NCBI GenBank assembly: GCA_016794005.1
Contig: JAEUKY010000383.1
Coordinates: 370 to 64,369 of the forward strand
Length of the DNA: 64,000 bases
DNA from: Rhodospirillales bacterium
Lineage (GTDB): Bacteria > Pseudomonadota > Alphaproteobacteria > CACIAM-22H2
Direction of reading: 5' to 3'
The translations under genes were made by a program, and so were the position numbers. Of this stretch, positions 13,881 to 57,520 are shown piece by piece (within the stretch, counting starts at the first letter, position 1; the number at the start of each line of letters is the position of its first letter). The notes beneath the pieces were generated by a model. It saw only the letters and a list, made by a program, of their open reading frames with translations, was not told the origin of the DNA and made no database searches.

Positions 13881-14054
13881 GTGCCCTAATTGCCGTTGGG
13901 CTCCGCTCCTCTCCTGTCGTTGCCGAAAATTATGGGAGCCGATATTGAATTCATTGAACAATTGGAAATCTGGGACACTAGGGGTTGCAGGTACGAATCC
14001 TCTCGCTCCGACCATCAATGAAGCCCGCCGCCGGGAAACCGGTCGGCGGGCTTC
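13881..14054 (+). repeat. copy A of the tRNA-Pro 3'-half-containing repeat element (most diverged)
   Basis: Leader homologous to copies B and C. tRNA-like part 13970-14014: cugggac..gcagg uacgaau ccucu cgcuccg a cca. GC-rich hairpin at 14020-14054. Confidence 0.75.
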
Positions 14055-14180
14055 CGCATCTCCTGTCGTCGATACGCGCCGCCTATCGAAACAATAGGCA
14101 GGCGATATTTCCGCCAACCGACGTCCCGTCGCATCGTGCGCTGTCTTCGGATTCACCCCCGGACAGGACGAGCGCCAAAA

Positions 14181-14759
14181 ATGGTCGATGAACGATCGGA
14201 CATTCGCAACCGCAACAGCGATCGCTGGCCGGCACTGCTGGCTGCCGGGCAGGCCGGCGATGCGCGCGCGTATAGGCTCTTTCTCGCCGAAGCCAGCGGC
14301 TTCCTGCGCAGCATCATTTTGCGGACCGGAATCCTGCCGCATTCGGCGGACGATGTCGTCCAGGAAGCCCTGATCACGATTCACGCGATCCGCCATACTT
14401 ACGATCCGCGGCGGCCGATCAAGCCTTGGTTGACCGCGATCGCACGCCGCCGGGCGGTCGACTGGCGCCGCAAGTCCAGTTCGACTGTGGCGCGCGAGAT
14501 CGCGTTCGATCCGGAAATCGTCGCCGCCGCACCCGACCCGCAATCCGGCACGGCAATTGCCCGAATCGACGCGCGCGCGATCGTCAACCGGGCGCTGCAA
14601 TCGCTTTCGCCCGGACAGCGGCGTGCGATCGAACTTCTGAAGCTCAAGGAAATGGAGCTGAAGGAAGCATCCCGGACGACCGGACAATCGACCGGCGCCC
14701 TCAAGATCGCCGTCCATCGGGCAATCCAAAGCATGCGCGCCCGGTTCGCAGCCGCGTAG
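14181..14759 (+). CDS. ECF-type RNA polymerase sigma-70 family factor
   Basis: ORF 14136..14759 trimmed to MVDERSD. Region 2 (DDVVQEALITIH...PWLTAIARRRAVDWRR) and region 4 (LSPGQRRAIELLKLKEMELKEASRTTG). Confidence 0.85.
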   Translation: MVDERSDIRNRNSDRWPALLAAGQAGDARAYRLFLAEASGFLRSIILRTGILPHSADDVVQEALITIHAIRHTYDPRRPIKPWLTAIARRRAVDWRRKSSSTVAREIAFDPEIVAAAPDPQSGTAIARIDARAIVNRALQSLSPGQRRAIELLKLKEMELKEASRTTGQSTGALKIAVHRAIQSMRARFAAA

Positions 14760-14789
14760 TTAGGCCGCCTCGGCAAAAGGATATCTGAG

Positions 14790-16061
14790 ATGACTGTCAA
14801 GAAATCAGCCCAACATCGTCCGCGCGTGGTGATCGTCGGTGGTGGTTTCGCCGGCCTTTCGGCCGCGCGTGAACTCTCTGCCAGCCCAGTCGACATCGTG
14901 CTGATCGACAAGCGCAATTATCACCTGTTCCAGCCGCTGCTCTATCAGGTCGCAACCGCTGGGTTGTCGCCGGCTGAGATCGCGGCACCAATCCGCGCGA
15001 TCCTGTCACACCAGCCGAACGTGACGGTGCTGATGTCCAAAGTTGCCGGGGTGAACACCGTCGCACGTGAGGTCCTTACCGACACCGGCCGCGTCGGCTA
15101 CGACCATCTCGTGTTGGCGACGGGCGCCCGCCACGCCTATTTCGGGCGCGACGACTGGGCGCCGTATGCGCCGGGCCTCAAGAAGATCGAGGATGCGACC
15201 GCGATCCGCCGACGCGTGCTGGTCGCGTTCGAGCGGGCGGAGGCAAGTGACGATCCGATCGAGCGTCAGGCCCTGCTGACCTTCGTCGTCATCGGTGGCG
15301 GACCGACCGGCGTCGAAATGGCCGGTGCCATCGCCGAACTGGCGCGCACGGCGCTCGCCGCCGATTTCAGACGGATCGAGCCCGGTACGGCGCGCGTGAT
15401 GCTTGTCGAAGCCGGCACTCGCGTACTGGCGACCTTTCCCGAGCAACTGTCGCAAAAGGCGAAACAGTCGCTCGAGCAGCTCGGCGTCACCGTCCTGACG
15501 GGAAAGCCGGTCGAGGTTTGCGATTCCGAAGGCGTCGTGATCGCCGGGACGCGAATCCGTGCTTCGACGCTGATCTGGGCGGCCGGCGTGGCCGCCTCGC
15601 CGGCCGCCAAGTGGATCAACGCCGAGAAAGACCGGGCCGGGCGCGCAATCGTCGGCCCCGACCTTACGGTTCCGGGACATCCCGAGATCTTCGCCATCGG
15701 CGATACGGCCATGGTGCGCGACGCCGACGGCAAGATCGTGCCGGGGATCGCCCCGGCTGCAAAGCAGCAGGGTGTCTATGCCGCGCGCGTGATCGCGGCG
15801 AAGGTCGCCGGCCGACCGATGCCGCCTGCGTTCCGCTACCGCCATCTCGGCAGCATGGCGACAATCGGCCGCAAGTCGGCGGTCGTCGATTTTGGCTGGA
15901 TGCGGCTGTCGGGCTTTCTTGCCTGGCTGCTCTGGGGGCTCGCCCACGTCTATTTCCTGATCGGCTTTCGTAGCCGCGTCGTCGTGGCGCTAAACTGGAT
16001 ATGGGCCTACGTGACGTTCCAGCGAGGGGCCCGCCTGATCACCGGCGGCGAGGGCAGCTAG
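14790..16061 (+). CDS. ndh: type II NADH:quinone oxidoreductase (NDH-2)
   Basis: ORF as given. Two Rossmann motifs (VVIVGGGFAGL, VVIGGGPTGVE) and IFAIGD. Confidence 0.85.
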   Translation: MTVKKSAQHRPRVVIVGGGFAGLSAARELSASPVDIVLIDKRNYHLFQPLLYQVATAGLSPAEIAAPIRAILSHQPNVTVLMSKVAGVNTVAREVLTDTGRVGYDHLVLATGARHAYFGRDDWAPYAPGLKKIEDATAIRRRVLVAFERAEASDDPIERQALLTFVVIGGGPTGVEMAGAIAELARTALAADFRRIEPGTARVMLVEAGTRVLATFPEQLSQKAKQSLEQLGVTVLTGKPVEVCDSEGVVIAGTRIRASTLIWAAGVAASPAAKWINAEKDRAGRAIVGPDLTVPGHPEIFAIGDTAMVRDADGKIVPGIAPAAKQQGVYAARVIAAKVAGRPMPPAFRYRHLGSMATIGRKSAVVDFGWMRLSGFLAWLLWGLAHVYFLIGFRSRVVVALNWIWAYVTFQRGARLITGGEGS

Positions 16062-16939
16062 GCCATCCAGTCGAAGCCGACCGCTTCCCGCACGAAGGCG
16101 CCGACCGCCGGCGAATGCGGACGGCCGCGAACTGTTACCAGATTGATCGTCCGGGAGATCTGCGGCTCGATCAGTTCGCGCGTCACTAGGCCGTCGATAC
16201 TGACGGCGAATTCCGGAATCGACGTCACGCCCAGGCCGGCCTTGACCATCGACTGGATCCAGTCGTCGCGCTCGCTTCGATAGGGCCGTTCGATCTTGAC
16301 GTCGTTTGACCGGTAAAGCTCGCGGATATGGTCGCCATACTCGCAGTTGGCGCGGAAGAGATAGCGCTCCCCGTCCATGTCGCTGAGGCGGATCTTGCGT
16401 TTCCCTTCGAACCGGTGGCCCGGCGCGCAGGCGATCAGGAACCGCTCGTCGAACAGGCGCATGACGTGGAAGCGCACGTCGGTGATGCCGCCGGGCAGGC
16501 CGTAGATCGCCACGTCGAGTTCCCCGGCAGCTAGCATCTCCTCGAGAAACTGGCCTTTGGCATCGCGGAGATTGATCTCGATGCCCGGGTACCGCTCGCG
16601 GAACCCCTTCATCAGGCCCAGCAGCCTTGCCGGGCCGAGCGTGCACATTATCCCGACGCTTAGCTGCCCGCCGCCGAGCTTGCCGAATTCCCGGGCGCGG
16701 ACCTTGGCGGCTTCGGACTGGGCGAGTACTTCGATGAGGTGCGGCTGCATCATCCGCCCGAGCTCTGTGAGGTGCGTATTCGTCCGTTCGCGATGGAACA
16801 GCGGCCCGCCGAGCTCATCCTCGAGGTTCTTGATGGCGCGCGTCAAGGCCGGCTGCGACACGTTGCAGCGCTCGGCCGCGCGCGTGAAGTTCAGCAACTC
16901 GCTGACGGCGAGAAAATAGCGGACCTGATGCATTTCCAT
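16058..16939 (-). CDS. LysR-family transcriptional regulator
   Basis: Trimmed from ORF 16058..17578 to MEMHQVRYFLAVSELLNFTRAAERCNVSQPALTRAIKNLE (wHTH). Divergent from the DoxX/bdhA genes. Confidence 0.9.
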   Translation of the reverse strand: MEMHQVRYFLAVSELLNFTRAAERCNVSQPALTRAIKNLEDELGGPLFHRERTNTHLTELGRMMQPHLIEVLAQSEAAKVRAREFGKLGGGQLSVGIMCTLGPARLLGLMKGFRERYPGIEINLRDAKGQFLEEMLAAGELDVAIYGLPGGITDVRFHVMRLFDERFLIACAPGHRFEGKRKIRLSDMDGERYLFRANCEYGDHIRELYRSNDVKIERPYRSERDDWIQSMVKAGLGVTSIPEFAVSIDGLVTRELIEPQISRTINLVTVRGRPHSPAVGAFVREAVGFDWMA

Positions 16940-17059
16940 GGCCGACCCAAATACACCCGAACGCCATAGTCGTGGCGCATCGTTTCGATAGGCAGTCGGC
17001 ATTTCCGCGAAGAGACCGGCGCTGCCACATTCCCGCCATCCCAACCGAAGGAGGGAACG

Positions 17060-17545
17060 GTGAATCAGATGGCATCCAAAAGCACGGGGCGCAAGTCCAT
17101 TTCCAAGCTCGTCTCGTTCGGCCTGGCCGGCTGGATCGCGTACGTGTTTGTCTGGTACCTGCAGTACAAGTTCGGCGGTGCGGAAGGCAGCGTCTGGCTG
17201 TTCACGATCCTGACCGACTGGTTGGGCCTTTCCGGCCACGAGATGGCGATGCGCATCGGCACGGGGATCGCCGAGCTTGTTACCGCCCTGCTGGTGCTTG
17301 CCGGTGCGACCCGCGTTGTCGGGGCAGCGATGTCTCTCGGAATCATGTCGGGCGCCATCTTCTTCCACCTCGCCACGCCACTCGGCATCGACCCCTATCA
17401 CGATGGCGGCGTGCTCTTCGCCGAGGCCTGCCTGACCTGGCTTGCCGCTGCGGCAATCCTGTGGATCGAGCGCGAGGCCGCCTTGAGCCTGGCTTCGCGC
17501 CTGCCTGTCGTCGGCCATATCGCGCAGCAGCTGCAGCGCGCCTGA
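17060..17545 (+). CDS. DoxX-family membrane protein
   Basis: ORF as given, GTG start with GAAGGAGGG upstream. Four hydrophobic segments. Confidence 0.65.
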   Translation: MNQMASKSTGRKSISKLVSFGLAGWIAYVFVWYLQYKFGGAEGSVWLFTILTDWLGLSGHEMAMRIGTGIAELVTALLVLAGATRVVGAAMSLGIMSGAIFFHLATPLGIDPYHDGGVLFAEACLTWLAAAAILWIEREAALSLASRLPVVGHIAQQLQRA

Positions 17546-17580
17546 ACCCCATTTCGCAAACCAACGGACGGAGAACACGA

Positions 17581-18411
<831 letters not shown>

Positions 18412-18435
18412 ACGCGGGCGAGGGGGAGAGCGACG

Positions 18436-19497
18436 ATGGACGACGGAATCGCAGCGCGTGGCCGCCCTATGGCAGCCTCGATGCAGGAAACCAAGACGAT
18501 CAATCTCGCCCTTCAGGGCGGCGGCGCGCACGGCGCCTTTGCCTGGGGTGTGCTCGACCGCCTGCTCGAGGACGAGCGGATCGCCTTCGAGGGGATCAGC
18601 GCAACCAGTGCTGGCGCCATGAACGCCACGGTGCTGGCTTCGGGCCTCGCGTCCGGTGGCCGCGACAGTGCACGGGCGGCCCTTGCGACGTTCTGGCGTA
18701 AGATCAGCGAAGCGGCGGCACTGGGCCCACTGCAACCGACCTGGTACGACCGGATGACGGGTAACCGGTCGATGGATTCGAATCCGGCCTTCGTCCTGTT
18801 CGACATGATGAGCCGACTGCTGTCGCCCTACCAGTTCAACCCGCTCAACAACAATCCGCTGCGCGACGTGCTGGAAACGGTGGTCGATTTCGATCTCGTG
18901 CGCCAGCAGACCGCCATCAAGCTTTTCCTGTGCGCCACGAACGTGCGCACCGGCAAGGTGAAGATCTTCGAGAACCGCGAGATCACGTCTTCCGCCGTGC
19001 TCGCCTCGGGCTGCCTGCCGTTCATGTTCCAGGCCGTCGAGGTCGACGGCGAGGCCTATTGGGACGGCGGTTATATGGGCAATCCGGCGATCTTCCCGCT
19101 GATCTACGGATGCAAGTCGACCGACGTCGCGATCGTCCATCTTAATCCGATCGAGCGCAGCGAAGTGCCGAAGACGGCGGGTGATATCCTCAACCGCCTC
19201 AACGAGATCAGTTTCAACTCCTCGTTGATGCGCGAGATGCGCGCGATCGCATTCGTCACGAAGTTGATCGAGACCGATCAGCTCAAAAGCGGCAATCTAC
19301 GCAAGGTCCTGATCCACGGCATCGAGGCCGAGGAGCGCATGAAAGGATTCGGCGTCGCAAGCAAGCTCAACGCCGACTGGGAGTTCCTGCGGGAACTCCA
19401 CGTGCTTGGTCGACGGGTTGCCCAGACCTGGATCGAGGACAAGTTCGACACGCTTGGCCGCCGCTCGACGATCGACATCCACCAAAAATATCTCTGA
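18436..19497 (+). CDS. patatin-like phospholipase family protein (PatD-like)
   Basis: ORF as given. GGGAHG oxyanion motif and GxSxG-type ATSAG serine. The DGG aspartate motif is present (YWDGGY). Confidence 0.85.
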   Translation: MDDGIAARGRPMAASMQETKTINLALQGGGAHGAFAWGVLDRLLEDERIAFEGISATSAGAMNATVLASGLASGGRDSARAALATFWRKISEAAALGPLQPTWYDRMTGNRSMDSNPAFVLFDMMSRLLSPYQFNPLNNNPLRDVLETVVDFDLVRQQTAIKLFLCATNVRTGKVKIFENREITSSAVLASGCLPFMFQAVEVDGEAYWDGGYMGNPAIFPLIYGCKSTDVAIVHLNPIERSEVPKTAGDILNRLNEISFNSSLMREMRAIAFVTKLIETDQLKSGNLRKVLIHGIEAEERMKGFGVASKLNADWEFLRELHVLGRRVAQTWIEDKFDTLGRRSTIDIHQKYL

Positions 19498-19511
19498 ATC
19501 CGGAGCCCGAC

Positions 19512-20282
19512 ATGAACCGCATGCAGATCCTTCGCCTTCCGTCGATGCCGGCTGCTTCGCCGAGCTATCCGCACGGTCCCTATCGCTTCACGAACCGGGA
19601 ATATTTCATCGTCGCCTACAAAAGCGATCCTGCAGCCGTGCGCGCGGCCGTGCCCGAGCCGCTGGTGCCGGACGCAGAAGCGATCGTCTACTACGAGTGG
19701 ATCCGCATGCCGGACAGTTCGGGCTTCGGCGACTATACCGAGAGCGGCGTGGTGATTCCGTGCACCTGGCAGGGAACGCCGTGCAATTTCGTGTCGCAGA
19801 TGTATCTCGACGACGACCCGCCGATCGCGGCAGGGCGCGAGATCTGGGGATTCCCGAAGAAATACGCGCACCCCAAGCTCGAGGTCGCGACCGATACGCT
19901 GACCGGCACGCTCGACTATGCCGGACAGCGCGTCGCGATAGGCACGATGGCATACAAGCACGACGGCTTCGCACGCGACCACGAGCGGACGTCGGCTGCA
20001 CTGGCCAAGATGCAGGTCAATCTCAAGATCATCCCGCATGTCGACGGCACGCCGGCAATCGCCCAGCTTGTCGCGTACAAACTGACCGACGTGACGGTGA
20101 AGGGGTCGTGGACGGGACCGGCCCGACTCCATCTGGTGCCGCATGTGAACGCGCCGGTCGCCGACCTTCCGGTGCGCGAGATCGTCGGCGGCCGGCATTT
20201 CGTGGCGGATCTCACGTTGCCGTACGGCAATGTAATCCACGACTATCTTGCCGAGAACGCCATGGCCGTCGCCGCCCAATGA
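19512..20282 (+). CDS. adc: acetoacetate decarboxylase
   Basis: ORF as given. ADC-family N-terminus (PSYPHGPYRFTNREYFIVAY) and the REIWGFPKK lysine region. Confidence 0.85.
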   Translation: MNRMQILRLPSMPAASPSYPHGPYRFTNREYFIVAYKSDPAAVRAAVPEPLVPDAEAIVYYEWIRMPDSSGFGDYTESGVVIPCTWQGTPCNFVSQMYLDDDPPIAAGREIWGFPKKYAHPKLEVATDTLTGTLDYAGQRVAIGTMAYKHDGFARDHERTSAALAKMQVNLKIIPHVDGTPAIAQLVAYKLTDVTVKGSWTGPARLHLVPHVNAPVADLPVREIVGGRHFVADLTLPYGNVIHDYLAENAMAVAAQ

Positions 20283-21640
20283 GCATTTCGTCCGCCGTTT
20301 CGCTGCTGACACATCTCCTTCCGGCCCGGATCGAGGATCGGGCCCTGCCCGAACGCGTCCGGAAGGAGATTGTCGCCGAGCAGCATCGCGGCGACATCCT
20401 CGTCAGCATCGTCCAGCTCGGGCTCTGCGCGGTCTTCCTGACGCTCTATGCGGTTTCCCGCAAGACGCATCCGGCAGACGCACCGTTTGTGCCCGTGCCG
20501 TGGGCGCTTGGTTTCTATACGACATTCGCGCTCGCCAAATTCGCGCTCGCCTGGCGCGCGCGGCTTTCCGATGCGGTGCAGGTCGCATCGATCGTCATCG
20601 ATATGGCGCTCCTGCTCGGGCTCATCTGGAGCTTCCATATCCAGTACGCACAGGTTGCGGCCTTCTACCTGAAGGCGCCGACCCTGCTGTACGTCTTCAT
20701 CTTCATCGCCTTGCGGGCGTTGCGCTTCGACGCCCGCTTCGTCCTGTTAGCGGGCGGCGTGGCCGCACTCGGATGGCTGGGACTCGTCGTCTATGCCGTC
20801 GCGAGCAATCCCGACGGCATGCCGGTCACGCACGATTTCGTCGTCTACATGACGTCCGCGACAATTCTGTGGGGAGCCGAGATCGACAAGATGGTTTCCA
20901 TCCTGCTGGTCACCGGACTCATCGCCGTCGCCATCACGCGTGCCCGTCGGATGCTGATGCGCGCGGTGGCCGAGGACGTCGCCGCACGCGACCTCAAGCG
21001 CTTCTTCGCGCCGGAAATCGCCAGCCGCATCACGATGGCGGAGCATGGGCTGCGCCCGGGAGAAGGAGAGATCCGCATGGCGGCGACCCTATTCGTCGAT
21101 CTGCGCGGTTTCACCGATCTGTCGCGCAAACTCGACGCCAGCGCGCTGATTCGGCTTTTGGCGGACTATCAGGGCCTGCTCGTCCCGATCATCCAGGCTC
21201 ACGGTGGCAGCATCGACAAGTTCATGGGGGACGGAATCATGGCGAGCTTCGGCGCCGTGCGGCCGTCGTCAACCTTCGCCGCCGATGCAGTCCGCGCGGT
21301 CGACGATTTGATGACAACTGCCGCGGTGTGGATCGCCGACCTGCGCGCACGGGGGCTTCCGGCAACCGGTGTAGGCGCCGCGCTTGCAAGCGGCGATGTC
21401 CTTTTCGGCTGCGTGGGGGACGAGTCGCGCCTCGAGTATACGGTCATCGGCGAGGCAGTGAATCTTGCAGCGAAACTCGAGAAGCATACGAAGGCCGAGC
21501 GGGTCCAGGCACTTGCAACGGGCGAGTTGATGGATCTAGCGCTTGCGCAGGGCTATGTGCGCGCCGGTCCGCCTGCCGAACGGCGGAATTCGAGTGTGGC
21601 CGGCGTCGAGGGCAAGCTGGAGATCGTTGTCCTCGCGTAA
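20279..21640 (+). CDS. membrane-anchored class III adenylate/guanylate cyclase
   Basis: Trimmed from ORF 19406..21640. ATG overlaps the adc stop (ATGA). About 6 TM segments, then a cyclase domain ([11 protein letters not shown]...[12 protein letters not shown]...[15 protein letters not shown]). Confidence 0.85.
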
Positions 21641-21695
21641 CTTCAGGCGGCTTGCGGACGAATTTGACAGAGGGTTCTTCCCACGGAGATGTACG

Positions 21696-23378
21696 ATGGC
21701 GCGCTTCGCAAACATGTCGATTTCCCGGAAGATTCTGCTGGCTGTGCTCGTGCCGGGGGCGCTTGCCACGGCAATGGCAGCATGGGCGGCGAACGGGCTC
21801 GCCGAGGCCGTGTCGGCGGCGCGTCTGATCAATCGGGCTGCCTTGAATGTCGAGAGCACGGGCTATATCGGGGCGAGCACGATCAGCCTTGCCCGCAATG
21901 TCGAGGCGCTGGGGCTCGACCTGCCGGGCGGTCGACGCGGCGAGCTGGCGGGTGCGGCGGCGAAGGATCTCGACGTGATCCGGGAAAACCTGTCCGAGCT
22001 TGAGCCGCATCTGGCGGATCAGGGTGCACGCCAGGCGATGGTGGCGGCCCGGCGCGCGCTCGATACCTATCGCCCGATCGCGGAAAATGTCGTCCGGCTG
22101 TCAAACCAGGGAAATCGCGTTGACGCCGGGCATACGGCAATCGGCGGCGCGCCGCTGGTACTGGATGCGATCCTTGCCTTGACGGATCTCTACGATCGCA
22201 ATGCCCGCCAGGCGGATCGGGCGACTGCCGAGGTCGTCGCGATACTCGACCGATTGGTGATCTGGCTTCCTCTTGTGGCGATCGCGGTGGGCTTTGTTGG
22301 CATTGGTCTCGGTCTCGGCATCGGTCGATGGGGAATCGTGCACCCCCTGGATCGCGTTGTGGCAAGCATGCGCCGGATCCAGAAAGGCGACTTCGACGAC
22401 GAAGTCCCACTCGTGGGTCGGCGCGACGAGATAGGTGTCGTGGCGACCGCCCTGTCGGCGTTTCGCGTCGAACTGATGGAAGCGGACCGGGCTCGCTCCG
22501 CCCAGCAAGCCGAGCGGATTGCTGCGGAGAATGCGCGCCGTCAAGCATTGGCCTCGATGGCGAATGCGGTATCGGCCGCCACCGCGGATGCCACCCGGCA
22601 AGCCGCGACACGCACGTCCGTGATGGTCGATCTTGCGGACGAGATGGGCCGTGACGCAACGACGACGGCGAACAATTCGACGGCTGTCGCGGAAGCGGCC
22701 GAGAACGCACTGCGGAATACCGAAACTGTCGCTGCGGCAACGCACGAACTGTCGGCTTCGATCGACGAGATCAACCAACAGGTCGCGCGTACGGCGGACG
22801 TCACGCGCAGCGCCGTTCGAAATGGCGAGGCGACGCGCCGGACGGTCGAGAAGCTTGCGCAGTCCGTTGCGGAAATCCGCACATTCACCAAGCTGATCGC
22901 CGATATCGCCGGCCAGACAAACCTGTTGGCGCTCAATGCAACGATCGAAGCCGCCCGCGCCGGGGAGGCTGGGAAGGGCTTCGCGGTGGTTGCCGGCGAG
23001 GTCAAGAGTCTCGCCAACCAGACCGCCCGCGCGACCGACGACATTGCCCGCCAGATCGGCGCGGTCGAGGCGGCGACATCCGAGGCCTTAGTCGCAATAC
23101 GCACGATCGAGACGACAATCGGCAACATCGACCAGATCACCGGCGGGATCGTCGATTCTCTCAACTCCCAGGGGGCCGCTACCCGCGAGATTTCGCAGAA
23201 TGTCGAGGAGGTCGCGATTGCCGCACGGGATGTGACACGGCGGATCGCGGAGGTTGCGAAAAGTGCGACGCGTGTCGGTGCCGCGACTGGCAAACTGGGC
23301 ACAACCGCGCGAGAAGTCGCAGAGCGGACGGCTTCGCTTGAAGTTTCCGTGACGGACGCCCTGCAGGTTGCCAGCTAG
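21696..23378 (+). CDS. methyl-accepting chemotaxis protein
   Basis: Trimmed from ORF 21543..23378 to MARFANMS (ACGGAGA SD). Two TM segments, HAMP, and the highly conserved signalling hairpin ([30 protein letters not shown]). Confidence 0.9.
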
Positions 23379-23602
23379 CCGTACGGGACTTGCCGTCAAC
23401 GTCGAGTGCTGTCGTCTCGGGTCAATGCGTGTGAAATCCAGCGAATAGCAGGTGCGGCGATCTCATGTTCATTTGTTCAAGTTCTCTCGGGCACGGCACT
23501 GCGTTCAAGAAGAAGATCGACAAGAAAGCCCGTCGAGCGCCGTTTCCGTGCAACTATCCGCCGGCCTGAGCCCGGCTGCTTCGTCGAATGGAGATGTGCC
23601 CA

Positions 23603-24124
23603 ATGCCTCTTACCGGAAAGCCCGTCGCCGGTTCTATCTTCCCGCCCGTCGCCGTCGCGCGCCTTGGCGGCGGAGAGCTCGCACCGGCCGCGATGCCGGG
23701 CTGGCGTCTCGTGATCGTCTATCGTGGCCGCCATTGTCCGTTGTGCAAGCCGTATCTCGGCACGCTCGACCGGCTCGTCGGCGAGTTTGCGGCCGGCGGG
23801 ATCGCCGTCGTCGCGATTTCGGCCGACCCCGAAGAGAAAGCGGAAGCCGACCGGACCGAGTTCGGCTGGCGGTTCCCGATCGGCTACGGACTTACGATCG
23901 AGCAGGCGCGCGAACTCGGACTCTATGTCTCCGAACCGCGCTCGCCCCAGGAGACCGATCGGCCTTTCGCCGAGCCGGGCCTGTTCCTGATCAACCCGCA
24001 GGGGCAGATCCAGATCGTCGACATCTCCAATGCGCCGTTCGCCCGGCCGGACCTGGCCGCGATCGCGCGCGGCGCCAAACGAATCCAGGAAGTCAATTAC
24101 CCGATCCGCGGCACGCTCGCGTGA
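23603..24124 (+). CDS. AhpC/TSA (redoxin) family protein
   Basis: ORF 23588..24124. Preferred start is the third ATG (GGAG 9 nt upstream). CPLC active-site motif. Confidence 0.65.
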   Translation: MPLTGKPVAGSIFPPVAVARLGGGELAPAAMPGWRLVIVYRGRHCPLCKPYLGTLDRLVGEFAAGGIAVVAISADPEEKAEADRTEFGWRFPIGYGLTIEQARELGLYVSEPRSPQETDRPFAEPGLFLINPQGQIQIVDISNAPFARPDLAAIARGAKRIQEVNYPIRGTLA

Positions 24125-24825
24125 GCGCCCCGGACGGCATCACGTCCGGTCGTCTGGCCGTGCGCGCCTGCGTGTTCGATGCGTATGGGACGCTGTTCGA
24201 CTTCGGTTCGGCCGCCGCGTCGTGCGCGGACGTGCTCGGCGACAAGGCCGGTCCGCTGACTGCCCTTTGGCGCGAAAAGCAGCTCCAATACACGTGGCTA
24301 CGCGGCTTGCAGGATCGGCATGCGGATTTCTGGACCGTTACGGGAGATGCGCTCGACTTCGCCCTCGAATCTCTCGGTCTCCACACGCCGGAAATCCGTT
24401 CGCGACTCATGTCGTTGTACCGGACACTGCGATGCTTCGACGAGGTTCCCGCCGTCCTCAGGAATCTCAAGGCTGGCGGATTTGCAACGGCGATCCTTTC
24501 CAACGGCAGTGCGGGCATGCTTGCCGACGCGGTCCGGGCATCCGGCCTCGAGGCCGTATTTGATCAGGTGCTGTCGGTGGATGCGGTCGGTGTGTTCAAG
24601 CCGCATCCGCGCGTGTACCGACATGCCGTCGACGAACTTGGGGTTCCGGCGGAGGCCATCGCATTCGTCTCGTCGAACGCCTGGGACGCGCACGCTGCCG
24701 CGGCTTTTGGCATGCAGGCGGTATGGTGCAATCGATATGCCCAGAAAGCCGAACGGCTTCCGGGGGTGCCGCGGTTCCAGATTCGGAGCCTCGACGCTTT
24801 GGCGGACCGTTTGCAGCTTGCGTGA
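24121..24825 (+). CDS. haloacid dehalogenase, type II (HAD superfamily)
   Basis: Within ORF 23452..24825. GTG at 24121 overlaps the redoxin stop (GTGA); the alternative GTG is at 24160. Motifs DAYGTLFD, SNG, and the C-terminal WDAHAAAAFG. Confidence 0.8.
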   Translation: MSAPDGITSGRLAVRACVFDAYGTLFDFGSAAASCADVLGDKAGPLTALWREKQLQYTWLRGLQDRHADFWTVTGDALDFALESLGLHTPEIRSRLMSLYRTLRCFDEVPAVLRNLKAGGFATAILSNGSAGMLADAVRASGLEAVFDQVLSVDAVGVFKPHPRVYRHAVDELGVPAEAIAFVSSNAWDAHAAAAFGMQAVWCNRYAQKAERLPGVPRFQIRSLDALADRLQLA

Positions 24826-25182
24826 AGCCAATCCCAGGCATTCGTAACCGAAGGCACCTTCGCCCGCAGACGCTGGGCTGCTGCCAACGCCGCGCGCTCG
24901 CCGTGCAGAAGCTGGCTTAAGATTAGCGCGTGGCGGCTGCGTGTTAGCCAGAACGGTCGCTGCGGCATAACGCCATCTAGCAACTCCGCGGGACCCCAAG
25001 CGCATTTGCCGCCCAGCCGTGCAAGCGCGTCGTAACGTGACTGACTCACACGGTCTCTCTGTGCTTGAAAGCAATGGCCGTGTGCGAGCATCCGTTGCGG
25101 CACTCTGCTAGGCGATCGGACACTTGATCGCTTGACGCGGTCCGGCTCGGCAGACCATCCGATGTCCGACCGTTTCCCGCCT

Positions 25183-26163: not shown

Positions 26164-26429
26164 GGCGACCCCATTCGATAAACGAGGAGTTTGTTGTCGC
26201 CATCGGTTCGCATGCTGTGGTGTGCGGGTTACGGTTGCGTGGTCTACTTTTCACCACTAACTCTTGGATGTTCTGTCCCGACTATGGGGCAGGATCATTT
26301 CCGCTCCGGCTGTCTAAGTCGGCTTGATTCACAAACGCTCCATCAAGCATATCGGTTCCACATCGTCCGGCTGCTGAATTGACGATTTTATAAGTGCATT
26401 TTGCGCTGTTGGGACAATGCGCCCGCCCT

Positions 26430-26775
26430 TTGGAACCACTAGTCATCGTTCGCAATGGCATCTTCTCTCCGGTCTTGCCCGCGTTTGTGCTCGGCAACTT
26501 CGCGCATGTCGTGCGCAGCGATCTGAGCTTTCCAAAATAGGTCTATTCAGCGATGTCGATCTACCTGTAGTTCGCCATCGGGCTGAAGGGCGGGGGGCAT
26601 CCCTTCCCGCATCCTCGTGCAACTCGGTAAGCTCGATGCAGCCAACGCGCCGGCGATCGCGGCGCATTCCGGCTCTGTATCCGCCGTCACGTTCATTGCC
26701 ACCACCGCCTACGTCCACTCGGTGGGGGGCGGTCACTGTCACGCTGGAACTGGCGGTCGATCACAGGAATGGTGA
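26430..26775 (+). pseudogene. decayed N-terminal fragment of an SbtA-like (DUF897) sodium/bicarbonate transporter family permease
   Basis: One frame reads ...FSPVLPAFVLGNFAHVVRSDLSFPK*VYSAMSIYL*FAIGLKGGG, with in-frame TAG at 26538 and 26568. After a shift and an apparent internal deletion it reads VQLGKLDAANAPAIAAHSGSVSAVTFIATTAY. It stops far short of the ~320-aa family length. Confidence 0.6.
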
Positions 26776-26844
26776 TCCCTTGGTCGGCACGCGCACATTT
26801 CTTTGTCGATATAGCGACATGGCGGGGTAGGGACGAACTCGAAA

Positions 26845-27036: not shown

Positions 27037-27049
27037 GGAAACTGAGGAC

Positions 27050-27095
27050 GGGAAATTGACTGGGGGGCGTAGGTTCGAGCCCTGCGGCTCCGACA
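27050..27095 (+). repeat. decayed partial copy (B2) of the tRNA-Pro-like 3' module
   Basis: gggaaattgactggggggcgtaggttcgagccctgcggctccgaca aligns with ctggaaatctgggggactgggggtcgcaggttcgaatcctgtcgctccgacca of copy B, with about 10 substitutions or indels. Confidence 0.6.
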
Positions 27096-27114
27096 ACATC
27101 TCTCCTGGGAGCCA

Positions 27115-29108: not shown

Positions 29109-29120
29109 GCCCTTCGCGCC

Positions 29121-45635: not shown

Positions 45636-47165
45636 ATGTCCCGCAAACCGAACATCCTGCTCATCACGTCCGACCAGCAGCGCGGCGACTGCTATGGGTT
45701 CGAAGGGCGCAAGGTCCGCACGCCGCATCTCGACATGATGGCGGGCGAGGGGACGCGCTTCTCCGCCTGCATCACGCCGAACGTCGTCTGCCAGCCGTCG
45801 CGCGCCTCGATCCTGACAGGTCTGCTGCCACGCACGCACGGCGTCTGGGACAATGGCATCGATCTCGACGAGGAAGTCGGCAATGCCGGATTCGCTGGGA
45901 CATTCGCGAAGGCAGGGTACCAGACTGGATTCATCGGCAAGGCGCATTTCTCGACTTTTCACACGTTCAAGCCGACCGGACGGCCGGAGTGCCGGTCGAG
46001 TTCGCACGAGTATGGTGGCGACTGGTCAGGCCCATATATGGGGTTCCAGCATGTCGACATGATGATCGCCGGCCACAACATGTTTCTGCCGCAGAAGCCG
46101 CCGGAAGGTCTGCAGTACGAAGCCTGGTACCACAAGGGCGGGCGCGGTGAGGCGCTCAACAAGCTGTTCTCGACCAAGCTTCCGCCGGATGTCGGTGCGG
46201 CGCAGACATGGAATTCGGCACTTCCACCGGCTTTCCACAATTCGACGTGGATTGGCGACCGCACGATTGACTTCATGCGCGACAACAAGGACCGACCGTG
46301 GATCGCGTGGGCGTCGTTCCCCGATCCGCATCATCCGTTCGATGCGCCGGCGCCTTGGTGCTACATGCATCATCCTGACGACGTCGACCTGCCGGCACAT
46401 CGGACAAAAGACCTGGAGCGGCGGCCGTGGTGGCACAAGGCTAGCCTCGAGGGCATCCCGAAGCTCGACGATCCGGAATTGCGCGCCTTCCGTGCCAAGC
46501 AGTCGCGCACGCCGGTGCAGACCGACGAGCAGCTACGCCACCTGATCGCTAACTACTACGGGATGATCTCGCTGATTGACCACAATGTCGGCCGCATCCT
46601 GCTGGCGCTCGAACACTACGGCCTCGATCGCGACACGCTGGTCATCTACACGACTGATCACGGCGACTGGCTGGGCGATCACGGGCTGCTGCTCAAGGGG
46701 CCGATCCATTACGAAGGGCTGCTGCGGATCGGATTCATCGTGCGCGGGCCGGGCGTGCCAAAGGGCAAGGTCGTGCCGCATCCGATTTCGACGCTCGATC
46801 TCGCCTCGACCTTCTACGACTACGCGAATCTGTCGCCGAACCGAAACCTCCATTCGCGCAGTCTGCGTCCGCTGATCGAGGGCGAAGGGACGCGCGATTT
46901 CGCCTACAACGAATGGGATCTGCATCCGTCGCGCTGCGGCGTGGCGCTGAAGCTGCGCACGGTGCGCACACGCACGCACAAGCTGACGCTCGAACTCGAT
47001 TCCGGGGCCGGCGAACTCTATGACCTCGCGAACGATCCGACGGAGATGGACAACCGGTTCGGCGACCCTGCCGTGGCGGCGGCCCAGCGCGAGATGACGG
47101 ACATGATCCGCAGTCGGCCGGCTGATGTCCGGGATCCTTTGCCCCAGCCGGTCGGCATGGCCTGA
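45636..47165 (+). CDS. sulfatase (Cys-type)
   Basis: ORF as given. NILLITSDQQ and C-x-P-S-R (CQPSRASILTG). Confidence 0.9.
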   Translation: MSRKPNILLITSDQQRGDCYGFEGRKVRTPHLDMMAGEGTRFSACITPNVVCQPSRASILTGLLPRTHGVWDNGIDLDEEVGNAGFAGTFAKAGYQTGFIGKAHFSTFHTFKPTGRPECRSSSHEYGGDWSGPYMGFQHVDMMIAGHNMFLPQKPPEGLQYEAWYHKGGRGEALNKLFSTKLPPDVGAAQTWNSALPPAFHNSTWIGDRTIDFMRDNKDRPWIAWASFPDPHHPFDAPAPWCYMHHPDDVDLPAHRTKDLERRPWWHKASLEGIPKLDDPELRAFRAKQSRTPVQTDEQLRHLIANYYGMISLIDHNVGRILLALEHYGLDRDTLVIYTTDHGDWLGDHGLLLKGPIHYEGLLRIGFIVRGPGVPKGKVVPHPISTLDLASTFYDYANLSPNRNLHSRSLRPLIEGEGTRDFAYNEWDLHPSRCGVALKLRTVRTRTHKLTLELDSGAGELYDLANDPTEMDNRFGDPAVAAAQREMTDMIRSRPADVRDPLPQPVGMA

Positions 47166-52682: not shown

Positions 52683-53470
52683 GGAGCCGCCTCGCCGAAT
52701 GGCTGGTGCCGATCGGCGCGCTGGCGCTGTTCCTGGCGCTGTGGGAGTTCGCTGCGGCGGCCGGCTGGCTGCGCCCGATCCAGTTTCCGCCGCCGAGCAA
52801 GCTTGCGCGTACGGCCGTCACGCTTGCTTTCGACGGCTTCCCCGAAGGCATCACGCTGTGGGTGCATGCCGGTATCACGATCCAGCGCATCCTCGCCGGA
52901 CATATCCTCGCCGTGGCGCTTGCCGTCCCGCTTGGCCTACTGACCGGCAGCCGGCCGCTGCTCGACCAAATGACCGCACCTATCGTCGCCTTTTGCCGTT
53001 CGGTCGCCACGCTGAGCCTTCTGCCGCTGGCCATCGTCTGGTTCGGTACGGGTGAGGGAGCGAAGATCTTCCTTATCGGTTATGGCTGCTTCTGGGTCAT
53101 GTTTTCGTCGAGCATCGCAGCAGTCAAGCTCGTCGATCCGGTCCTGATCCGCGCCGCGCGCACGATGGACGCCGACGAGAAGACCATCTTCCGGCAGGTG
53201 ATCCTGCCCGCTTCGCTGCCGCGCCTGCTTTCGGGTGCACGCGTTGCGCTGGGCGTGGGCTTCATGGTGATCGTGGGCGCCGAGATGATCGGTACGATCC
53301 GTGGCCTTGGCTCGCTGATCATGGAGGCGCGCACTTTCTATCGGACCGACATCACGATGGTCGGCATGCTGTGCATCGGCGCATTCGGCCTTTGCGTCAT
53401 GTTCGCGCTCGCTCGGATCGAGGCATGGCTGGTCCCTTGGCAGGCGAAGCAGGAGGCGCAGCAGCAATGA
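52679..53470 (+). CDS. ABC transporter permease (NitT/TauT family)
   Basis: Within ORF 52199..53470. GTG overlaps the ATPase stop (GTGA). Polytopic, with an EAA-like loop ([21 protein letters not shown]). Confidence 0.8.
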
Positions 53471-54222
53471 AGTTCGCCGAGCGCTTTGCCGGCCTGATCG
53501 GCGTCGTCCTTTTCCTCGGGCTATGGGAGATCGCCGCACGCTTTGGCTGGCGCAATCCCGCGATCATGCCTGCCCCCAGCCAAGCCGTGTGGATGGCGCT
53601 CGCGACCATCCCGCCTTTGACGCTGATCGAACATGTCGCGATCAGCTTGTGGCGCATCCTGGCGGGGTTCGCGCTGGGCGCGTCGGCCGGAGTGGCGCTC
53701 GGGATCGCCGCCGGCTGGTATCGGCCGGTGGCGCTGATCAGCCGGCCGTTCGTCGAGATCCTTCGGCCGATCCCGCCGCTCGCCTGGATCCCGATCGCCA
53801 TCGTCTGGTTCGGTCTCGGCGAACCTTCCAAGATTTTCGTCATCTTCCTGGGAACGTTCTTTCCGGTCTTCACCAGTGCGACGCGCGGCATGGCCTCAAT
53901 CCATCCGTCGATCCTGCGCGCCGCGCGCACGATGGATGTCGATGGTGTGCGCCTGCTGGCCAAGGTTGCCGTCCCTGCCGCAATGCCCGACATCGCTACG
54001 GGGCTGCGTATCGGCTTCGGCCTAGGTTTCGGCGTTCTTGTCGCTGCCGAACTCATCGCGGCCGGACGCGGCATGGGTCATCTCGTCATGGAGGCGCGCC
54101 AGCTCGGGCAGCTGGGTATCTCCGTGTTCGGCATATTCCTGATCGGACTTGTCAATCTCGTCGCAGACCAGCAGCTCGCTGCAGCCATACGCCGGACCGT
54201 CGGGCGCTGGCACCGTTTCTGA
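53467..54222 (+). CDS. ABC transporter permease (NitT/TauT family)
   Basis: Within ORF 53371..54222, ATGA overlap. Paralogue of the preceding permease (LRAARTMDVDGVRLLAKVAVP). Confidence 0.85.
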   Translation: MKFAERFAGLIGVVLFLGLWEIAARFGWRNPAIMPAPSQAVWMALATIPPLTLIEHVAISLWRILAGFALGASAGVALGIAAGWYRPVALISRPFVEILRPIPPLAWIPIAIVWFGLGEPSKIFVIFLGTFFPVFTSATRGMASIHPSILRAARTMDVDGVRLLAKVAVPAAMPDIATGLRIGFGLGFGVLVAAELIAAGRGMGHLVMEARQLGQLGISVFGIFLIGLVNLVADQQLAAAIRRTVGRWHRF

Positions 54223-55283: not shown

Positions 55284-56309
55284 ATGGACCGCGTCGGGAT
55301 CGCGTTCGTCGGCACGGGCTTCATCGCCGACTATCATCTGGCAGGATTGAACGCGGTCCCGCGCGCGGACGTGCGTATGGTGGTCGGGCGCGACGCTGCA
55401 AAAGCGGCGGCGGTCGCAGCCCGTTTCGGCATACCGGAGTCAAACACGGATTTCGCTGCAACGCTCGAAAGGCGGGATATTCATGCGGTCGTTATCGCCA
55501 CGCCCGATGACATGCATGAGGAGATGGCCGCTCTGGCGGCGGCTGCCGGCAAGGCAATTTTGTTGCAAAAGCCGATGGCGGCTGACAGTGCGGCTTGCCG
55601 GCGCATTATTGCAGCCGCTAAGGTCGCGAAGATCGACCTGCAGATCAGTTTCATGCACCGGTATTTCGAGGAGTTCCGGATGGCGAAGGAACTCGTCGCC
55701 ACTGGTGCGATCGGCGACGTGACGAGCCTGCGCATCCGCAACGCCACGCCGGGGCCTGATTGGGCGGATTGGTTCTTTAAGAAGTCGCGCGTTGCCGGCG
55801 GCGTTGTGTTGCAACTCGGCGTACATGGCATCGATCTGCTGCTGCAGATGGGTGGCGCGGTAGCACAGGTGTCGGCAACGGCGGCGATCCTGAGACCGGA
55901 ACGGACGCTCGCTGACGGGCGCCGGGTGAAAGTCGAGAATCCAGACAGCGCTTGGGCGGTTTACTCGCTGGCGAACGGAACAGCAGCTTCGCACGAAATG
56001 TCAATGATCGAAGCAAAAGGCTGCGACCGGTTCCGATTCGAGATCTACGGGACCAAGGGTACGATCTGGCTGCGCAGCGAACTTGGTCCACTTGCCGTCA
56101 GCCGGAGCGGCCGCCCGGGATGGGAGATGCCTGAAGTTCCAATGTTGCCGTTCGGCAAGCGCCAGCATCAGGCATGGATCGACGGGATCGTCGGTGCGGC
56201 CTCGCCGGAGCGAACCGCGCAAGACGCGCTCGACGGTATCTTGATCGCCGAGGCGATCGGCCGGTCGAGTGTCTCGGGCGGGGCACGCGTCGCCGTGGAG
56301 GCGACATGA
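55284..56309 (+). CDS. Gfo/Idh/MocA-family oxidoreductase
   Basis: Trimmed from ORF 55092..56309 to MDRVGIAFVGTGFIADYH. Confidence 0.85.
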   Translation: MDRVGIAFVGTGFIADYHLAGLNAVPRADVRMVVGRDAAKAAAVAARFGIPESNTDFAATLERRDIHAVVIATPDDMHEEMAALAAAAGKAILLQKPMAADSAACRRIIAAAKVAKIDLQISFMHRYFEEFRMAKELVATGAIGDVTSLRIRNATPGPDWADWFFKKSRVAGGVVLQLGVHGIDLLLQMGGAVAQVSATAAILRPERTLADGRRVKVENPDSAWAVYSLANGTAASHEMSMIEAKGCDRFRFEIYGTKGTIWLRSELGPLAVSRSGRPGWEMPEVPMLPFGKRQHQAWIDGIVGAASPERTAQDALDGILIAEAIGRSSVSGGARVAVEAT

Positions 56310-57325
56310 TCCGGATCGCGATCCTCAGCTTCGCGCACTACCATGCGAATTTCTGGGTCGAGGCGTTCCAGTCACTCCCTGAAATCGAGGTCGTAGCGAT
56401 CTGGGACGACAACGTCGTGCGAGGTCGCGAGGCGGCCGGGCGCTTCAAGGTGCGGTTCGCCCCAGATCTCGACGCGGCGATTGACGCGGCCGACGCTGTT
56501 GCGATTTGCAGCGAGACGATCAATCACGCTCCGCTGATCGAACGAGCGCTCGCCGCCAAGCGGGCTGTGCTGTGCGAGAAGCCGCTCGCCGCCAACCTCG
56601 CCGAGGCCGCTCGCATCGAGAAGGCCGTGCGCGCTGCCGGCATGCCGTTCATGCAGAGCTTCCCCAAGCGGTTCGACCCTGTGTCGCACGAGCTCAAGCG
56701 TCTGGTCGATACAGGCGAACTCGGAAAGATCCGGCTAGTGCGCATCCGGCACGGGCACTTCTATGGGCTCGATCCCGATTTCCGCGAACGGTGGTACGTC
56801 GACCCGGCGTTGTCGGGTGGCGGCGCGCTGCTTGATGAAGGCGTACATGCTGCCGACCTGCTGTGCTGGCTGTTCGGCTTGCCGGCCGGCGTCACGGCGA
56901 ACGCTTCGTCGTCACTGGGCCTGAAGGTCGAGGATCAGGCAATCGCTATCTTCGACTACGTCGGCGGCATGCTGGCGGAGGTGACGTCGAGCTTCACTTT
57001 CGCGGCTGCTGACGCGTCGATCGAGATCTATGGATCAGAAGGGACGGCGATCGTCAGCGGCGTCGACCTTGCGTCGCGCGACATTACACCGTCGGGTCAT
57101 TTGAAGATATTCCATCGCACCCAGAGCGAGCGCGTATGGAATATTTCGCCTATCGTGCCACGCTTCAAGCTCGGCCAGTTCCACCACCAGAATGCCATCG
57201 CGTTTGCCGATTCTTTGCAACGGAAAGTGCAGCCACCGGTCACGTTGGATGATGGCCTGCGCTCGGTGAAGTTGATCTTTAGGGCCTATGAGGCCATCCG
57301 GAGTGGAGTCCGGACCCAAATTTGA
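56306..57325 (+). CDS. Gfo/Idh/MocA-family oxidoreductase
   Basis: Trimmed from ORF 56174..57325 to MIRIAILSFAHYHANF. ATGA overlap. Confidence 0.85.
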   Translation: MIRIAILSFAHYHANFWVEAFQSLPEIEVVAIWDDNVVRGREAAGRFKVRFAPDLDAAIDAADAVAICSETINHAPLIERALAAKRAVLCEKPLAANLAEAARIEKAVRAAGMPFMQSFPKRFDPVSHELKRLVDTGELGKIRLVRIRHGHFYGLDPDFRERWYVDPALSGGGALLDEGVHAADLLCWLFGLPAGVTANASSSLGLKVEDQAIAIFDYVGGMLAEVTSSFTFAAADASIEIYGSEGTAIVSGVDLASRDITPSGHLKIFHRTQSERVWNISPIVPRFKLGQFHHQNAIAFADSLQRKVQPPVTLDDGLRSVKLIFRAYEAIRSGVRTQI

Positions 57326-57333
57326 ACTGCCCG

Positions 57334-57520
57334 ATCGGAAGATACTCTCGGCCCTTAGTTTCCATTGGGTTCCCTTAATTGCCGAAAATTATGGAAACTG
57401 ACATTGAAATCATTGAGTTTCACAAAGTCTGGGGAACTGGGGGGCGCAGGTTCGAATCCTGTCGCTCCGACCAATTCGACTAACCAACAAGGCCCTGGCG
57501 AGCGATCACCAGGGCCTTTT
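57334..57520 (+). repeat. copy C of the tRNA-Pro 3'-half-containing repeat element (best preserved)
   Basis: Leader 57334-57428. tRNA-like part 57429-57473: cugggga acugg ggggc gcagg uucgaau ccugu cgcuccg a cca. Terminator hairpin 57489-57520. Confidence 0.85.
57489..57520 (+). terminator. intrinsic-terminator-like hairpin closing repeat copy C (could also serve the convergent crp/fnr gene)
   Basis: aaggcccugg...ccagggccuu stem followed by uu. It lies 56 nt beyond the stop of the minus-strand regulator gene. Confidence 0.6.

Follow-up and report, generated by a model that had tools for sequence, protein, structure and literature searches.

The successive splicing of gene blocks into a tRNA gene is a known route of bacterial genome growth, and the attachment (att) repeats of tRNA-Pro prophages, the ssrA islands of Dehalococcoides, the cis-mobilizable elements (CIMEs) and the cassette arrays of integrons are the described systems with which the locus presented here can be compared. 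This locus is a 64-kb stretch of DNA, hereafter called the window, which represents almost the entire 64,848-nt contig of a Rhodospirillales metagenome-assembled genome (MAG) and contains three copies, A, B and C, of a repeated unit. Each unit consists of a conserved leader of 90-140 nt, followed by the last 45 nt of tRNA-Pro(GGG) and then by a hairpin. With a probability of roughly 0.6, the three copies are att junctions, attR-like or hybrid attP-like, in a tandem array of integrase-less islands. If so, the contig shows a free-living alphaproteobacterium gaining catabolic and transport capacity by stacking blocks at a proline-tRNA core, the joints of which stay legible as arm-core-hairpin units. 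On present evidence the phenomenon falls into a known class, and a new kind of RNA gene is not indicated; its unusual aspects are the long arm conserved across genomes, the consecutive integrase-free blocks and the layered fragments of tRNA-Pro and tRNA-Lys. The unit may be of modest use as an island-boundary marker where integrase-based island finders see nothing, and annotators should be cautioned against calling such units tRNA pseudogenes or novel small RNAs (sRNAs).

The att repeats of tRNA-Pro prophages and islands, whose tyrosine integrases place the crossover in the anticodon-loop region, resemble the tRNA part of the unit in being 45-50 nt long, in running from C32 to CCA and in occupying the far end of the provirus, after element DNA (loci L014, L024, L025 and L029 of the present comparison); in the same system, the integrase gene adjoins the intact tRNA in locus L028. 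In contrast, the 64 kb examined here hold no intact tRNA, integrase or phage gene, and the arm, which is conserved among many copies and genomes, matches no viral contig. Dehalococcoides possesses tandem ssrA islands, some of them devoid of an integration module (PMC3146451), which share with the window the co-oriented repeats of the target-gene 3' end within tens of kb, their location at synteny breaks, the extra conservation around the repeat and the lack of an integration module. They differ in that the array starts at ssrA, that many islands carry a serine-recombinase module and that the repeat measures 20 bp, whereas the present repeat associates 45 nt of tRNA with a conserved arm of 90-140 nt, and no recombinase occurs in the islands examined. 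CIMEs and their accretion, of the ICESt1 type (PMC5704250), similarly consist of att-flanked blocks with conserved arms, devoid of integration and transfer genes and arranged in tandem as if inserted into a resident att site. The blocks at 14136-26163 and 27115-57325 of the window are likewise flanked by att-like units and free of integration and transfer genes. However, CIMEs are defined by a known parent, an integrative and conjugative or an integrative and mobilizable element, and by its integrase, whereas no parent was found here and mobility is a prediction.

Integron cassette arrays also exhibit co-oriented, structured recombination sites (attC) placed between varying promoter-independent cargo, with a recombinase encoded outside the cassettes. 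They provide an analogy only, as the present blocks are multi-gene stretches of 8-30 kb, the site combines an arm with a piece of a tRNA instead of being an attC hairpin, and neither IntI nor attI was seen. Finally, a T arm and a CCA-terminal tRNA segment located outside a tRNA gene are known from YrlA, the bacterial Y-RNA-like RNA, and from the tyrT-linked rtT repeats of Escherichia coli, which reiterate the tRNA 3' end plus the spacer preceding that end. The window contains no Rfam match to either and no acceptor-stem or D-arm mimic, and its copies lie 13-30 kb apart instead of within one tRNA operon.

Organization of the three copies

A repeat search of the window retrieved a single family with three + strand copies at 13892-14023, 26861-26992 and 57351-57482, A and C sharing 74% and 83% identity with B, respectively. 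A profile search (nhmmer) matched them at 13842-14063 (A, E = 2.3e-55), 26803-27041 (B, E = 9.7e-71) and 57289-57527 (C, E = 2.7e-63), and their extents are about 13842-14054 for A, 26793-27036 for B and about 57289-57520 for C, with a spacing of 12,969 nt from A to B and of 30,490 nt from B to C. The number, strand, positions and spacings of the copies had already been given by a first-pass annotation, and both direct reading of the sequence and the repeat search confirm them. The same annotation correctly reported a 30-nt perfect block common to B (26955-26984) and C (57445-57474), and the decayed partial copy it placed after B is real. Its conserved leader is supported by the nhmmer matches and by the alignments, but the leaders start further upstream than proposed, since homology extends to about 13842, 26793 and 57289 by profile search and alignment; in copy B it begins at 26803 according to nhmmer and at about 26793 by eye in the alignment. 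The 25-mer GGTTCGAATCCTGTCGCTCCGACCA, which covers the T arm and the acceptor segment, occurs three times in the window at up to 2 mismatches and not once in any of 100 shuffles. The GC content is uniform along the window except at the copies. The tRNA parts were compared over the 45 nt from C32 to CCA with the ARAGORN-validated tRNA-Pro(GGG) of locus L031. The units are composed as follows.

13842-13969, + strand: leader of copy A, putative recombination arm, with a core beginning GCCC at 13883 (nhmmer and alignments; the most diverged copy)
13970-14014, + strand: tRNA-Pro(GGG) 3' part of copy A, C32 to CCA (att core), decayed (38/45 against the L031 tRNA)
14020-14054, + strand: 'type-2' hairpin of copy A (inverted repeat with 16-nt arms, 88% complementary)
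26793-26938, + strand: leader of copy B (nhmmer; upstream likeness to L037 visible in the alignment)
26939-26983, + strand: tRNA-Pro(GGG) 3' part of copy B, C32 to CCA (att core), essentially intact (44/45 against the L031 tRNA)
26984-27036, + strand: 'type-1' trailer of copy B, a GC-rich hairpin (27003-27028) with a T-rich tail (inverted repeat 27001-27013 / 27018-27030)
27037-27100, + strand: decayed second unit after copy B (nhmmer 27058-27100, E = 8e-5)
57289-57428, + strand: leader of copy C, with a core beginning GCCC at 57351 (nhmmer and alignments)
57429-57473, + strand: tRNA-Pro(GGG) 3' part of copy C, C32 to CCA (att core) (42/45 against the L031 tRNA)
57474-57520, + strand: 'type-1' trailer of copy C, a hairpin (57491-57516) with a short T tail (inverted repeat 57489-57501 / 57506-57518)

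The matches to the L031 tRNA bear out the first-pass assignment of the three cores to the 3' half of tRNA-Pro(GGG). The rest of the tRNA is missing from the window. ARAGORN, which also detects permuted tmRNA genes, called no tRNA or tmRNA gene in the 64 kb, as the first-pass annotation had anticipated; the 300 nt preceding each of the three copies contain neither the CGGAGCG acceptor strand nor a D arm; and Rfam, its tmRNA families included, yielded no match at the gathering score in the 64 kb. The best Rfam tRNA match consists of the T arm alone and reaches 13.5 bits, for a gathering score of 29, with E = 4.3. An intact or split tRNA, or a tmRNA, is thus ruled out by ARAGORN, by Rfam and by the missing acceptor 5' strand.

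Depending on the copy, the leader is more or less well preserved. That of copy A displays 64-75% identity to the other leaders, and the core of the copy B leader is 83-90% identical to the leaders of three loci from related genomes (L001, L002 and L004). GTTTCC-type repeats with a 10-bp phasing, followed by an inverted GGAAAC, occur in the leader (at 26868-26897 for the repeats of copy B); by direct reading of the sequence the 10-bp period is exact, and it is clearest in L004. As for the hairpins, which the first-pass annotation took for terminators, real inverted repeats are found at every copy, but a simple terminator scan called none of them as a terminator. The trailer hairpin of copy C is 91% identical to that of copy B, while the hairpin of copy A lacks a T tail in this genome and is unrelated in sequence to the two others.

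Copies in proviruses and related genomes

A scan of IMG/VR for the 25-nt tRNA 3' end gave 21 loci, several of which are intact tRNA-Pro genes located at provirus edges. The pairs L023/L025 and L028/L029 represent the two ends of single proviruses; in each case the intact tRNA-Pro stands at one end, and at the other phage DNA leads into a 3' fragment. The integrase gene of L028 (PF00589), which terminates at a distance of 12 nt from the tRNA, serves as a positive control for the recombinase search. The identity with the tRNA starts at C32 in L014 and L024, exactly as in the copies of the window, and the first 50 nt of the proviruses L015, L018 and L026 are identical to the core of copy B from C32 onward. 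The tRNA half is therefore a genuine att core, the same tRNA-Pro 3' segment being used as the attR repeat by confirmed proviruses.

Eight further copies occur in related Rhodospirillales contigs (L001, L002, L004, L033, L036a to L036c and L037), which brings the family to 11 copies. A leader-only pattern searched in GTDB genomes retrieved a single copy (L001) from a Tagaea MAG and two (L002 and L004) from the MAG GCA_964416335.1 (CAYQDN), whose pattern matches both lie on one 47.7-kb contig; a fourth match, in Roseivirga, was discarded as a chance match. The copies of L033, L036 and L037 were obtained by running the nhmmer profile on loci fetched through neighbouring proteins. The L001 copy shows 91% identity to copy B over 190 nt, its flanks not being syntenic with the window, and L033 holds the counterpart of copy B in a strain that shares 99.4% identity with the window. 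L036 comprises three co-oriented copies and L037 a single one. The copies are thus clustered, with three in 64 kb in the window, three in 21 kb in L036 and two on the 47.7-kb CAYQDN contig, and within each multi-copy contig they all lie on the same strand. Scans of a metagenome collection with the leader pattern and with a core-plus-trailer pattern gave no match, in a collection that evidently lacks even the near-identical L033 contig.

Two gene blocks are bounded by the copies of the window.

14136-26163, no strand assigned: gene block 1, bounded by copies A and B (Pfam), with genes for an ECF sigma factor, NDH-2, LysR, SDR, patatin, acetoacetate decarboxylase, MCP, HAD and a catalase-like protein
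27115-57325, no strand assigned: gene block 2, bounded by copies B and C (Pfam), with genes for TctCBA, sulfatases, an MR/MLE enzyme, LysR, a second TctBAC, ABC transporters, DUF4432, GntR, DUF3604 and three GFO/IDH/MocA proteins

Where related genomes are comparable, the copies stand at the edges of synteny blocks (A, B and C; L005-L011 and L033-L037). Block 1 is syntenic in L033, L035, L036 and L037, from the ECF sigma gene to the MCP gene, i.e., from 14136 to about 23400 or beyond, in the last three of these. Its left edge bears a copy with a type-2 flank in three genomes (A, L036b and L037), and the genes upstream differ in each of them. Its right edge bears copies with a type-1 flank (B, L033 and L036c), followed by TctA in the window and by inositol-phosphatase and ABC genes in L036. 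The right part of block 2, from the sulfatase to the GFO gene, is syntenic in L005, L006, L007, L010 and L011, and the GFO stop codon is its limit in every case, so that this GFO-ended block appears in six genomes with four different downstream contexts. The GFO junction is occupied by copy C in the window and by a decayed remnant in L006, and carries nothing in L005, L007, L010 and L011. The remnant of copy C in L006 (11044-11100) consists of the leader start fused to ...CTTCACCCGACCAAGT and lies directly 3' of the orthologous GFO gene, inside about 200 nt that are absent from the closely related L010. At its left end, block 2 retains its synteny in L034 and the P0124-carrying contig, with TctA always as the last gene; beyond TctA, the latter contig continues into flagellar genes. 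An exact look-up of the TctA of the window found no record. In L034, whose TctA shows 85% identity, the place equivalent to copy B, with TctA on one side and the housekeeping genes mnmA/isc on the other, is occupied by an intact tRNA-Met(CAT) gene (11708-11782 on the - strand of the locus) that has a terminator of its own; in that genome, block 2 thus abuts a tRNA gene at its left end.

According to the nature of their flanks, the units fall into two types. The type-1 trailer is common to B, C, L001, L033, L036a and L036c in the alignment, and the type-2 hairpin to the same-junction copies A, L036b and L037. The hairpins of L036b and L037 are orthologous to that of copy A, differ from it in the upper stem by paired changes and possess a T tail. 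Units of the two types share homology as far as ...CCGACCA, where the tRNA ends, and are unrelated beyond it. The type-1 units are composites, in which the hairpin is followed by TGGAAAC, a leader remnant, and then by a second tRNA-Pro piece (GACTGGGGGTCGTAGGTTGG). The decayed unit at 27037-27100 comprises a leader remnant (TGGAAACTG) and a tRNA-like piece that lacks both leader and CCA and has a T arm like that of tRNA-Lys. The same composite stands after L036a and L036c, where the anticodon arm of tRNA-Lys(CUU) is still legible, together with the T arm in the case of L036c. Fragments of tRNA-Pro and tRNA-Lys thus accumulate after B-type copies. In L002 and L004, the leader is joined to the second tRNA-Pro piece, the T-arm 3' strand, the acceptor strand and the terminator being absent; judging from their sequence, these two copies look like the product of a deletion joining the first and second pieces.

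Some further tRNA-like pieces were noticed at these places. After L036c, at 18893-18979 of L036, ARAGORN calls a 68-nt 'tRNA-Lys(CTT)', a pseudo-tRNA made of a mosaic of a decayed tRNA-Pro piece and of the anticodon and T arms of tRNA-Lys(CUU); the decayed copy of the window (27058-27100) has a T arm similar to this tRNA-Lys piece. In the MAG GCA_964416335.1, L035 carries no copy of the unit upstream of block 1, at about 540-600 (- strand). Instead, an apparent tRNA 5' half, with the D arm GCTCAGCGGTAGAGC and an anticodon-loop region containing UGU, is present there without being called by ARAGORN, and represents another tRNA fragment at the upstream junction of block 1.

Origin of the junctions

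An origin of the copies as att junctions is preferred because proviruses use the same core as attR, the copies are positioned at synteny junctions, the homology of the flanks ends at the tRNA 3' end and fragments of tRNA-Pro and tRNA-Lys pile up behind the copies. The islands would have been built by site-specific integration into the tRNA-Pro(GGG) gene. The integrative element would carry an attP composed of an arm, i.e., the leader, of a core running from C32 of tRNA-Pro through the anticodon loop to CCA, and of a second arm. A tyrosine integrase would exchange strands in the core, the tRNA 3' copy of the element completing the gene and the old 3' part, together with whatever followed it (hairpin or terminator), being pushed to the far end of the island, preceded by the arm of the element. 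Repeated integration by related elements, or integration into any resident core, would generate co-oriented arm-core-flank copies with cargo in between. The recombinase, if still present, would act in trans from elsewhere in the genome, and the phased GTTTCC repeats might be arm-type or accessory-protein binding sites. Devoid of an integrase, the blocks of about 12 kb and about 30 kb behave like cis-mobilizable or decayed islands. Accordingly to this scheme, a recombinase, rather than homologous recombination between copies, would have made the junctions, the leader would probably bind protein, and the sites may or may not still be active.

The features usually expected from such sites are encountered in part. 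The repeat is a tRNA 3' segment which starts at C32, like the attR of L014 and L024, and beyond which the homology of the flanks ends after CCGACCA, and the co-oriented repeats delimit variably placed blocks (A, B and C against L005-L011 and L033-L037). An intact tRNA at the end of the array and a cognate integrase in or next to the island were both lacking in the loci examined. Several observations weigh against integration as the origin of the copies. No intact tRNA-Pro was found in the window or in any copy-bearing locus; as the window is nearly the whole contig, the end of the array with the intact tRNA may lie on another contig. Among about 40 open reading frames (ORFs) of the window, Pfam identified solely catabolic enzymes, transporters (Opp, two TctABC sets, ABC and MFS), sulfatases and regulators, and no integrase, transposase, excisionase, relaxase or phage gene, which confirms the absence of an integrase stated in the first-pass annotation. 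Neither an integrase nor a tRNA-Pro gene occurs in loci L001, L002, L004, L033, L036 and L037; the precomputed Pfam matches of 21 kb of L036 and those of L037 include no recombinase, nor did Pfam recognize one in the 10 ORFs around the L001, L002 and L004 copies, and excisionase, relaxase and phage genes are likewise missing from the 21 kb of L036 and from about 4 kb around the L001, L002 and L004 copies. The cargo blocks differ while having the same ends and share no backbone genes, which is unusual for a family of integrative elements. A clean empty site with both flanks conserved was not found in the genomes compared, since the downstream flank at the C junction differs too in L005, L006, L007, L010 and L011. 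The leader has no match in phage, plasmid and viral collections, where the tRNA part alone matches and anything else is a chance match, so that no parent element is known. Moreover, non-orthologous leaders are 75-96% identical where four-fold degenerate sites are 43-67% identical, a conservation too strong for dead scars, which calls for continued use or recent spread. Finally, the 5' end of the leader GCCCTTGGTTTCC (26861-26873) is complementary, G-U pairs counted, to GGGGACTGGGGGT of the tRNA-like part (26942-26954), with 13/13 pairs in copy B, a score matched by 135 of 30,000 shuffles, and the same positions pair in copy C; this pairing is left unexplained by integration at an att site, and is equally unexplained if the copies are dispersed repeats.

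The divergence among copies is informative with respect to their turnover. At the four-fold sites of the NDH-2 gene, the window is 67% identical to L036 and 43% to L037, the core being 98-100% identical among the three genomes and the leaders 64-90% identical between genomes. The leaders of copy A and L036b, which occupy the same junction, are 70% identical, whereas those of L036b and L036c, from the same genome, reach 96%. Copies at the same position are thus less alike than copies within a genome, which fits a turnover at the junctions or a homogenisation, and does not fit a vertically inherited gene. Compared with L033, the window shows 7 differences in the 5.6 kb to the left of the CCA end of copy B and 34 in the 1.6 kb to its right, the switch in divergence falling between 26910 and 26993, a span that contains the core. 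A tract of about 0.9 kb located at 20428-21351 gathers 21 of the 36 differences from L033 found to the left of copy B and contains no element; its ORF has no Pfam match in our scan and is a guanylate cyclase in the L033 gene calls, and the tract appears to result from a recombination unrelated to the element. Owing to this second divergent tract, the switch at copy B is supportive only, and the step in divergence, as one of several tract edges, could also reflect ordinary homologous recombination, which again speaks against site-specific integration.

Other explanations are kept in consideration, since the conservation of the leader and a run of several gene blocks without backbone genes are odd for plain scars. 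It is conceivable, if unlikely, that an att site once gave rise to a non-autonomous module of about 200-250 nt, of which the copies would be dispersed repeats, passive or self-spreading, and that the blocks are excised, re-inserted and exchanged by homologous recombination between co-oriented copies, with no dedicated integrase. The absence of an integrase from every array examined and the unrelated cargo blocks with identical ends agree with such a module, as do the near-identity of within-genome paralogues (96% for L036b/L036c), predicted by Campbell-type integration or gene conversion, the mosaic of recombination tracts between the window and L033, that at 20428-21351 without element included, and the recurrence as a whole of a copy plus decayed copy in B, L033, L036a and L036c. 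However, the homology of the flank types stops exactly at the tRNA 3' end, which points to an exchange within the core, the copies of the window, mutually 64-83% identical, are poor substrates for homologous recombination, the inverted repeats correspond to hairpin arms and to one pair from the decayed copy rather than to transposon-like ends, and the conservation of the leader is not accounted for. Still less probable is an undescribed cassette system in Tagaea-like Rhodospirillales, for which the copies would serve as portable recombination sites that are still live, or would be transcribed into a tRNA-like RNA that participates in it. A module of about 200-250 nt, made of the GTTTCC arm, the tRNA-Pro(GGG) half and the terminator, would then delimit each of the multi-gene catabolic blocks of 8-30 kb, which lack mobility genes, and the blocks would be shuffled, stacked and exchanged between genomes by one recombinase encoded elsewhere, in an integron-like manner, with the tRNA half as the crossover site.

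The least probable of the explanations considered is that the copies are genes for a family of structured sRNAs of about 130-190 nt, tRNA-like and processed or possibly charged at their CCA end. Such an RNA would display a long stem between the 5' end of the leader and the former anticodon stem plus variable region, a T arm, a single-stranded 3' end ...CGCUCCGACCA and its own terminator. Single-sequence folds that pair these two regions and are somewhat more stable than those of shuffles (z = -3.1, -2.9 and -2.3), a leader-core pairing of 12-13 bp, a hairpin after most copies, the type-2 hairpin being maintained between genomes by paired changes, and a leader and core conserved far above four-fold sites all speak for such an RNA, the variable sequence past CCA would suit a trailer removed in processing, and multi-copy sRNA families without conserved neighbours are known in alphaproteobacteria. 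On the other hand, no Rfam family matches, the RNAalifold covariation term of +1.03 over 6 copies gives no support, with a single compensatory pair out of 31, and changes in the 5' strand of the stem keep the pairing four times and break it four times, in a set of 11 copies of limited power. The inner GTTTCC/GGAAAC hairpin is mismatched in 9 of the 11 copies, and the acceptor 3' strand has no partner. A scan restricted to sigma-70-type promoters and strict terminators called none at the three copies, and upstream of the leader the copies have no conserved sequence common to all. Three of the 11 copies have lost tRNA-like parts (the T-arm 3' strand, acceptor strand and terminator in L002 and L004, and 8 nt of the stem in L036c) and yet keep a leader of 82-96% identity. 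Nor are copies at orthologous positions each other's nearest relatives, and an sRNA family predicts neither the location of copies at synteny breaks nor the tRNA-Lys fragments. The first-pass annotation had proposed that an RNA would be discredited if conservation of the leader were confined to this genome; it extends to other genomes, so that the RNA survives on this point, weakened by the observations above. The leaning of that annotation, which found att scars a poor fit and an RNA family a live alternative, is not supported, for att junctions explain much more once related genomes are compared.

Rejected candidates and other features of the window

A few other candidates were considered for the copies and set aside. 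No known RNA family was matched in Rfam. A leader peptide was suggested by the mini-ORF ATGGAAACTGCCATTGAAATCATTGAATAA (METAIEIIE*), found at 26897-26926, from 57417 onward and in most copies, and was rejected as coding: in A and C the frame stays open through the tRNA part, L037 has lost the ATG, and a Shine-Dalgarno sequence is missing. An attenuator of a downstream gene was rejected because copies B and C face the 3' ends of convergent genes. Inspection by eye of the leader and its upstream region, the only check made, found no convincing match to sigma-54, ECF-type or IHF motifs. A miniature inverted-repeat element or another non-autonomous transposon was discarded for want of convincing terminal inverted repeats. 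Apart from the hairpins, the sole end-to-end inverted match is CCTTGGTTTCCA / TGGAAACTGAGG in copy B, absent from A and C; since TGGAAACTG is identical to an internal motif of the leader, it is more readily attributed to what is left of the leader in the decayed second copy. The boundaries of the copies are fuzzy. Upstream of copy B, a 137-aa ORF (26417-26830) examined as a possible integrase remnant has no Pfam match.

Block 2 contains two TctABC tricarboxylate-transporter sets in opposite orientation (27115-30224 and 36730-39809) and at least three sulfatase genes (31534-33021, 44159-45631 and 45636-47165), which suggests a region specialised in the use of sulfated substrates. Two direct repeats with 72-77% identity, located 767 nt apart at 53024-53175 and 53791-53942, lie inside two neighbouring paralogous ABC permease genes and thus reflect an ordinary tandem gene duplication.

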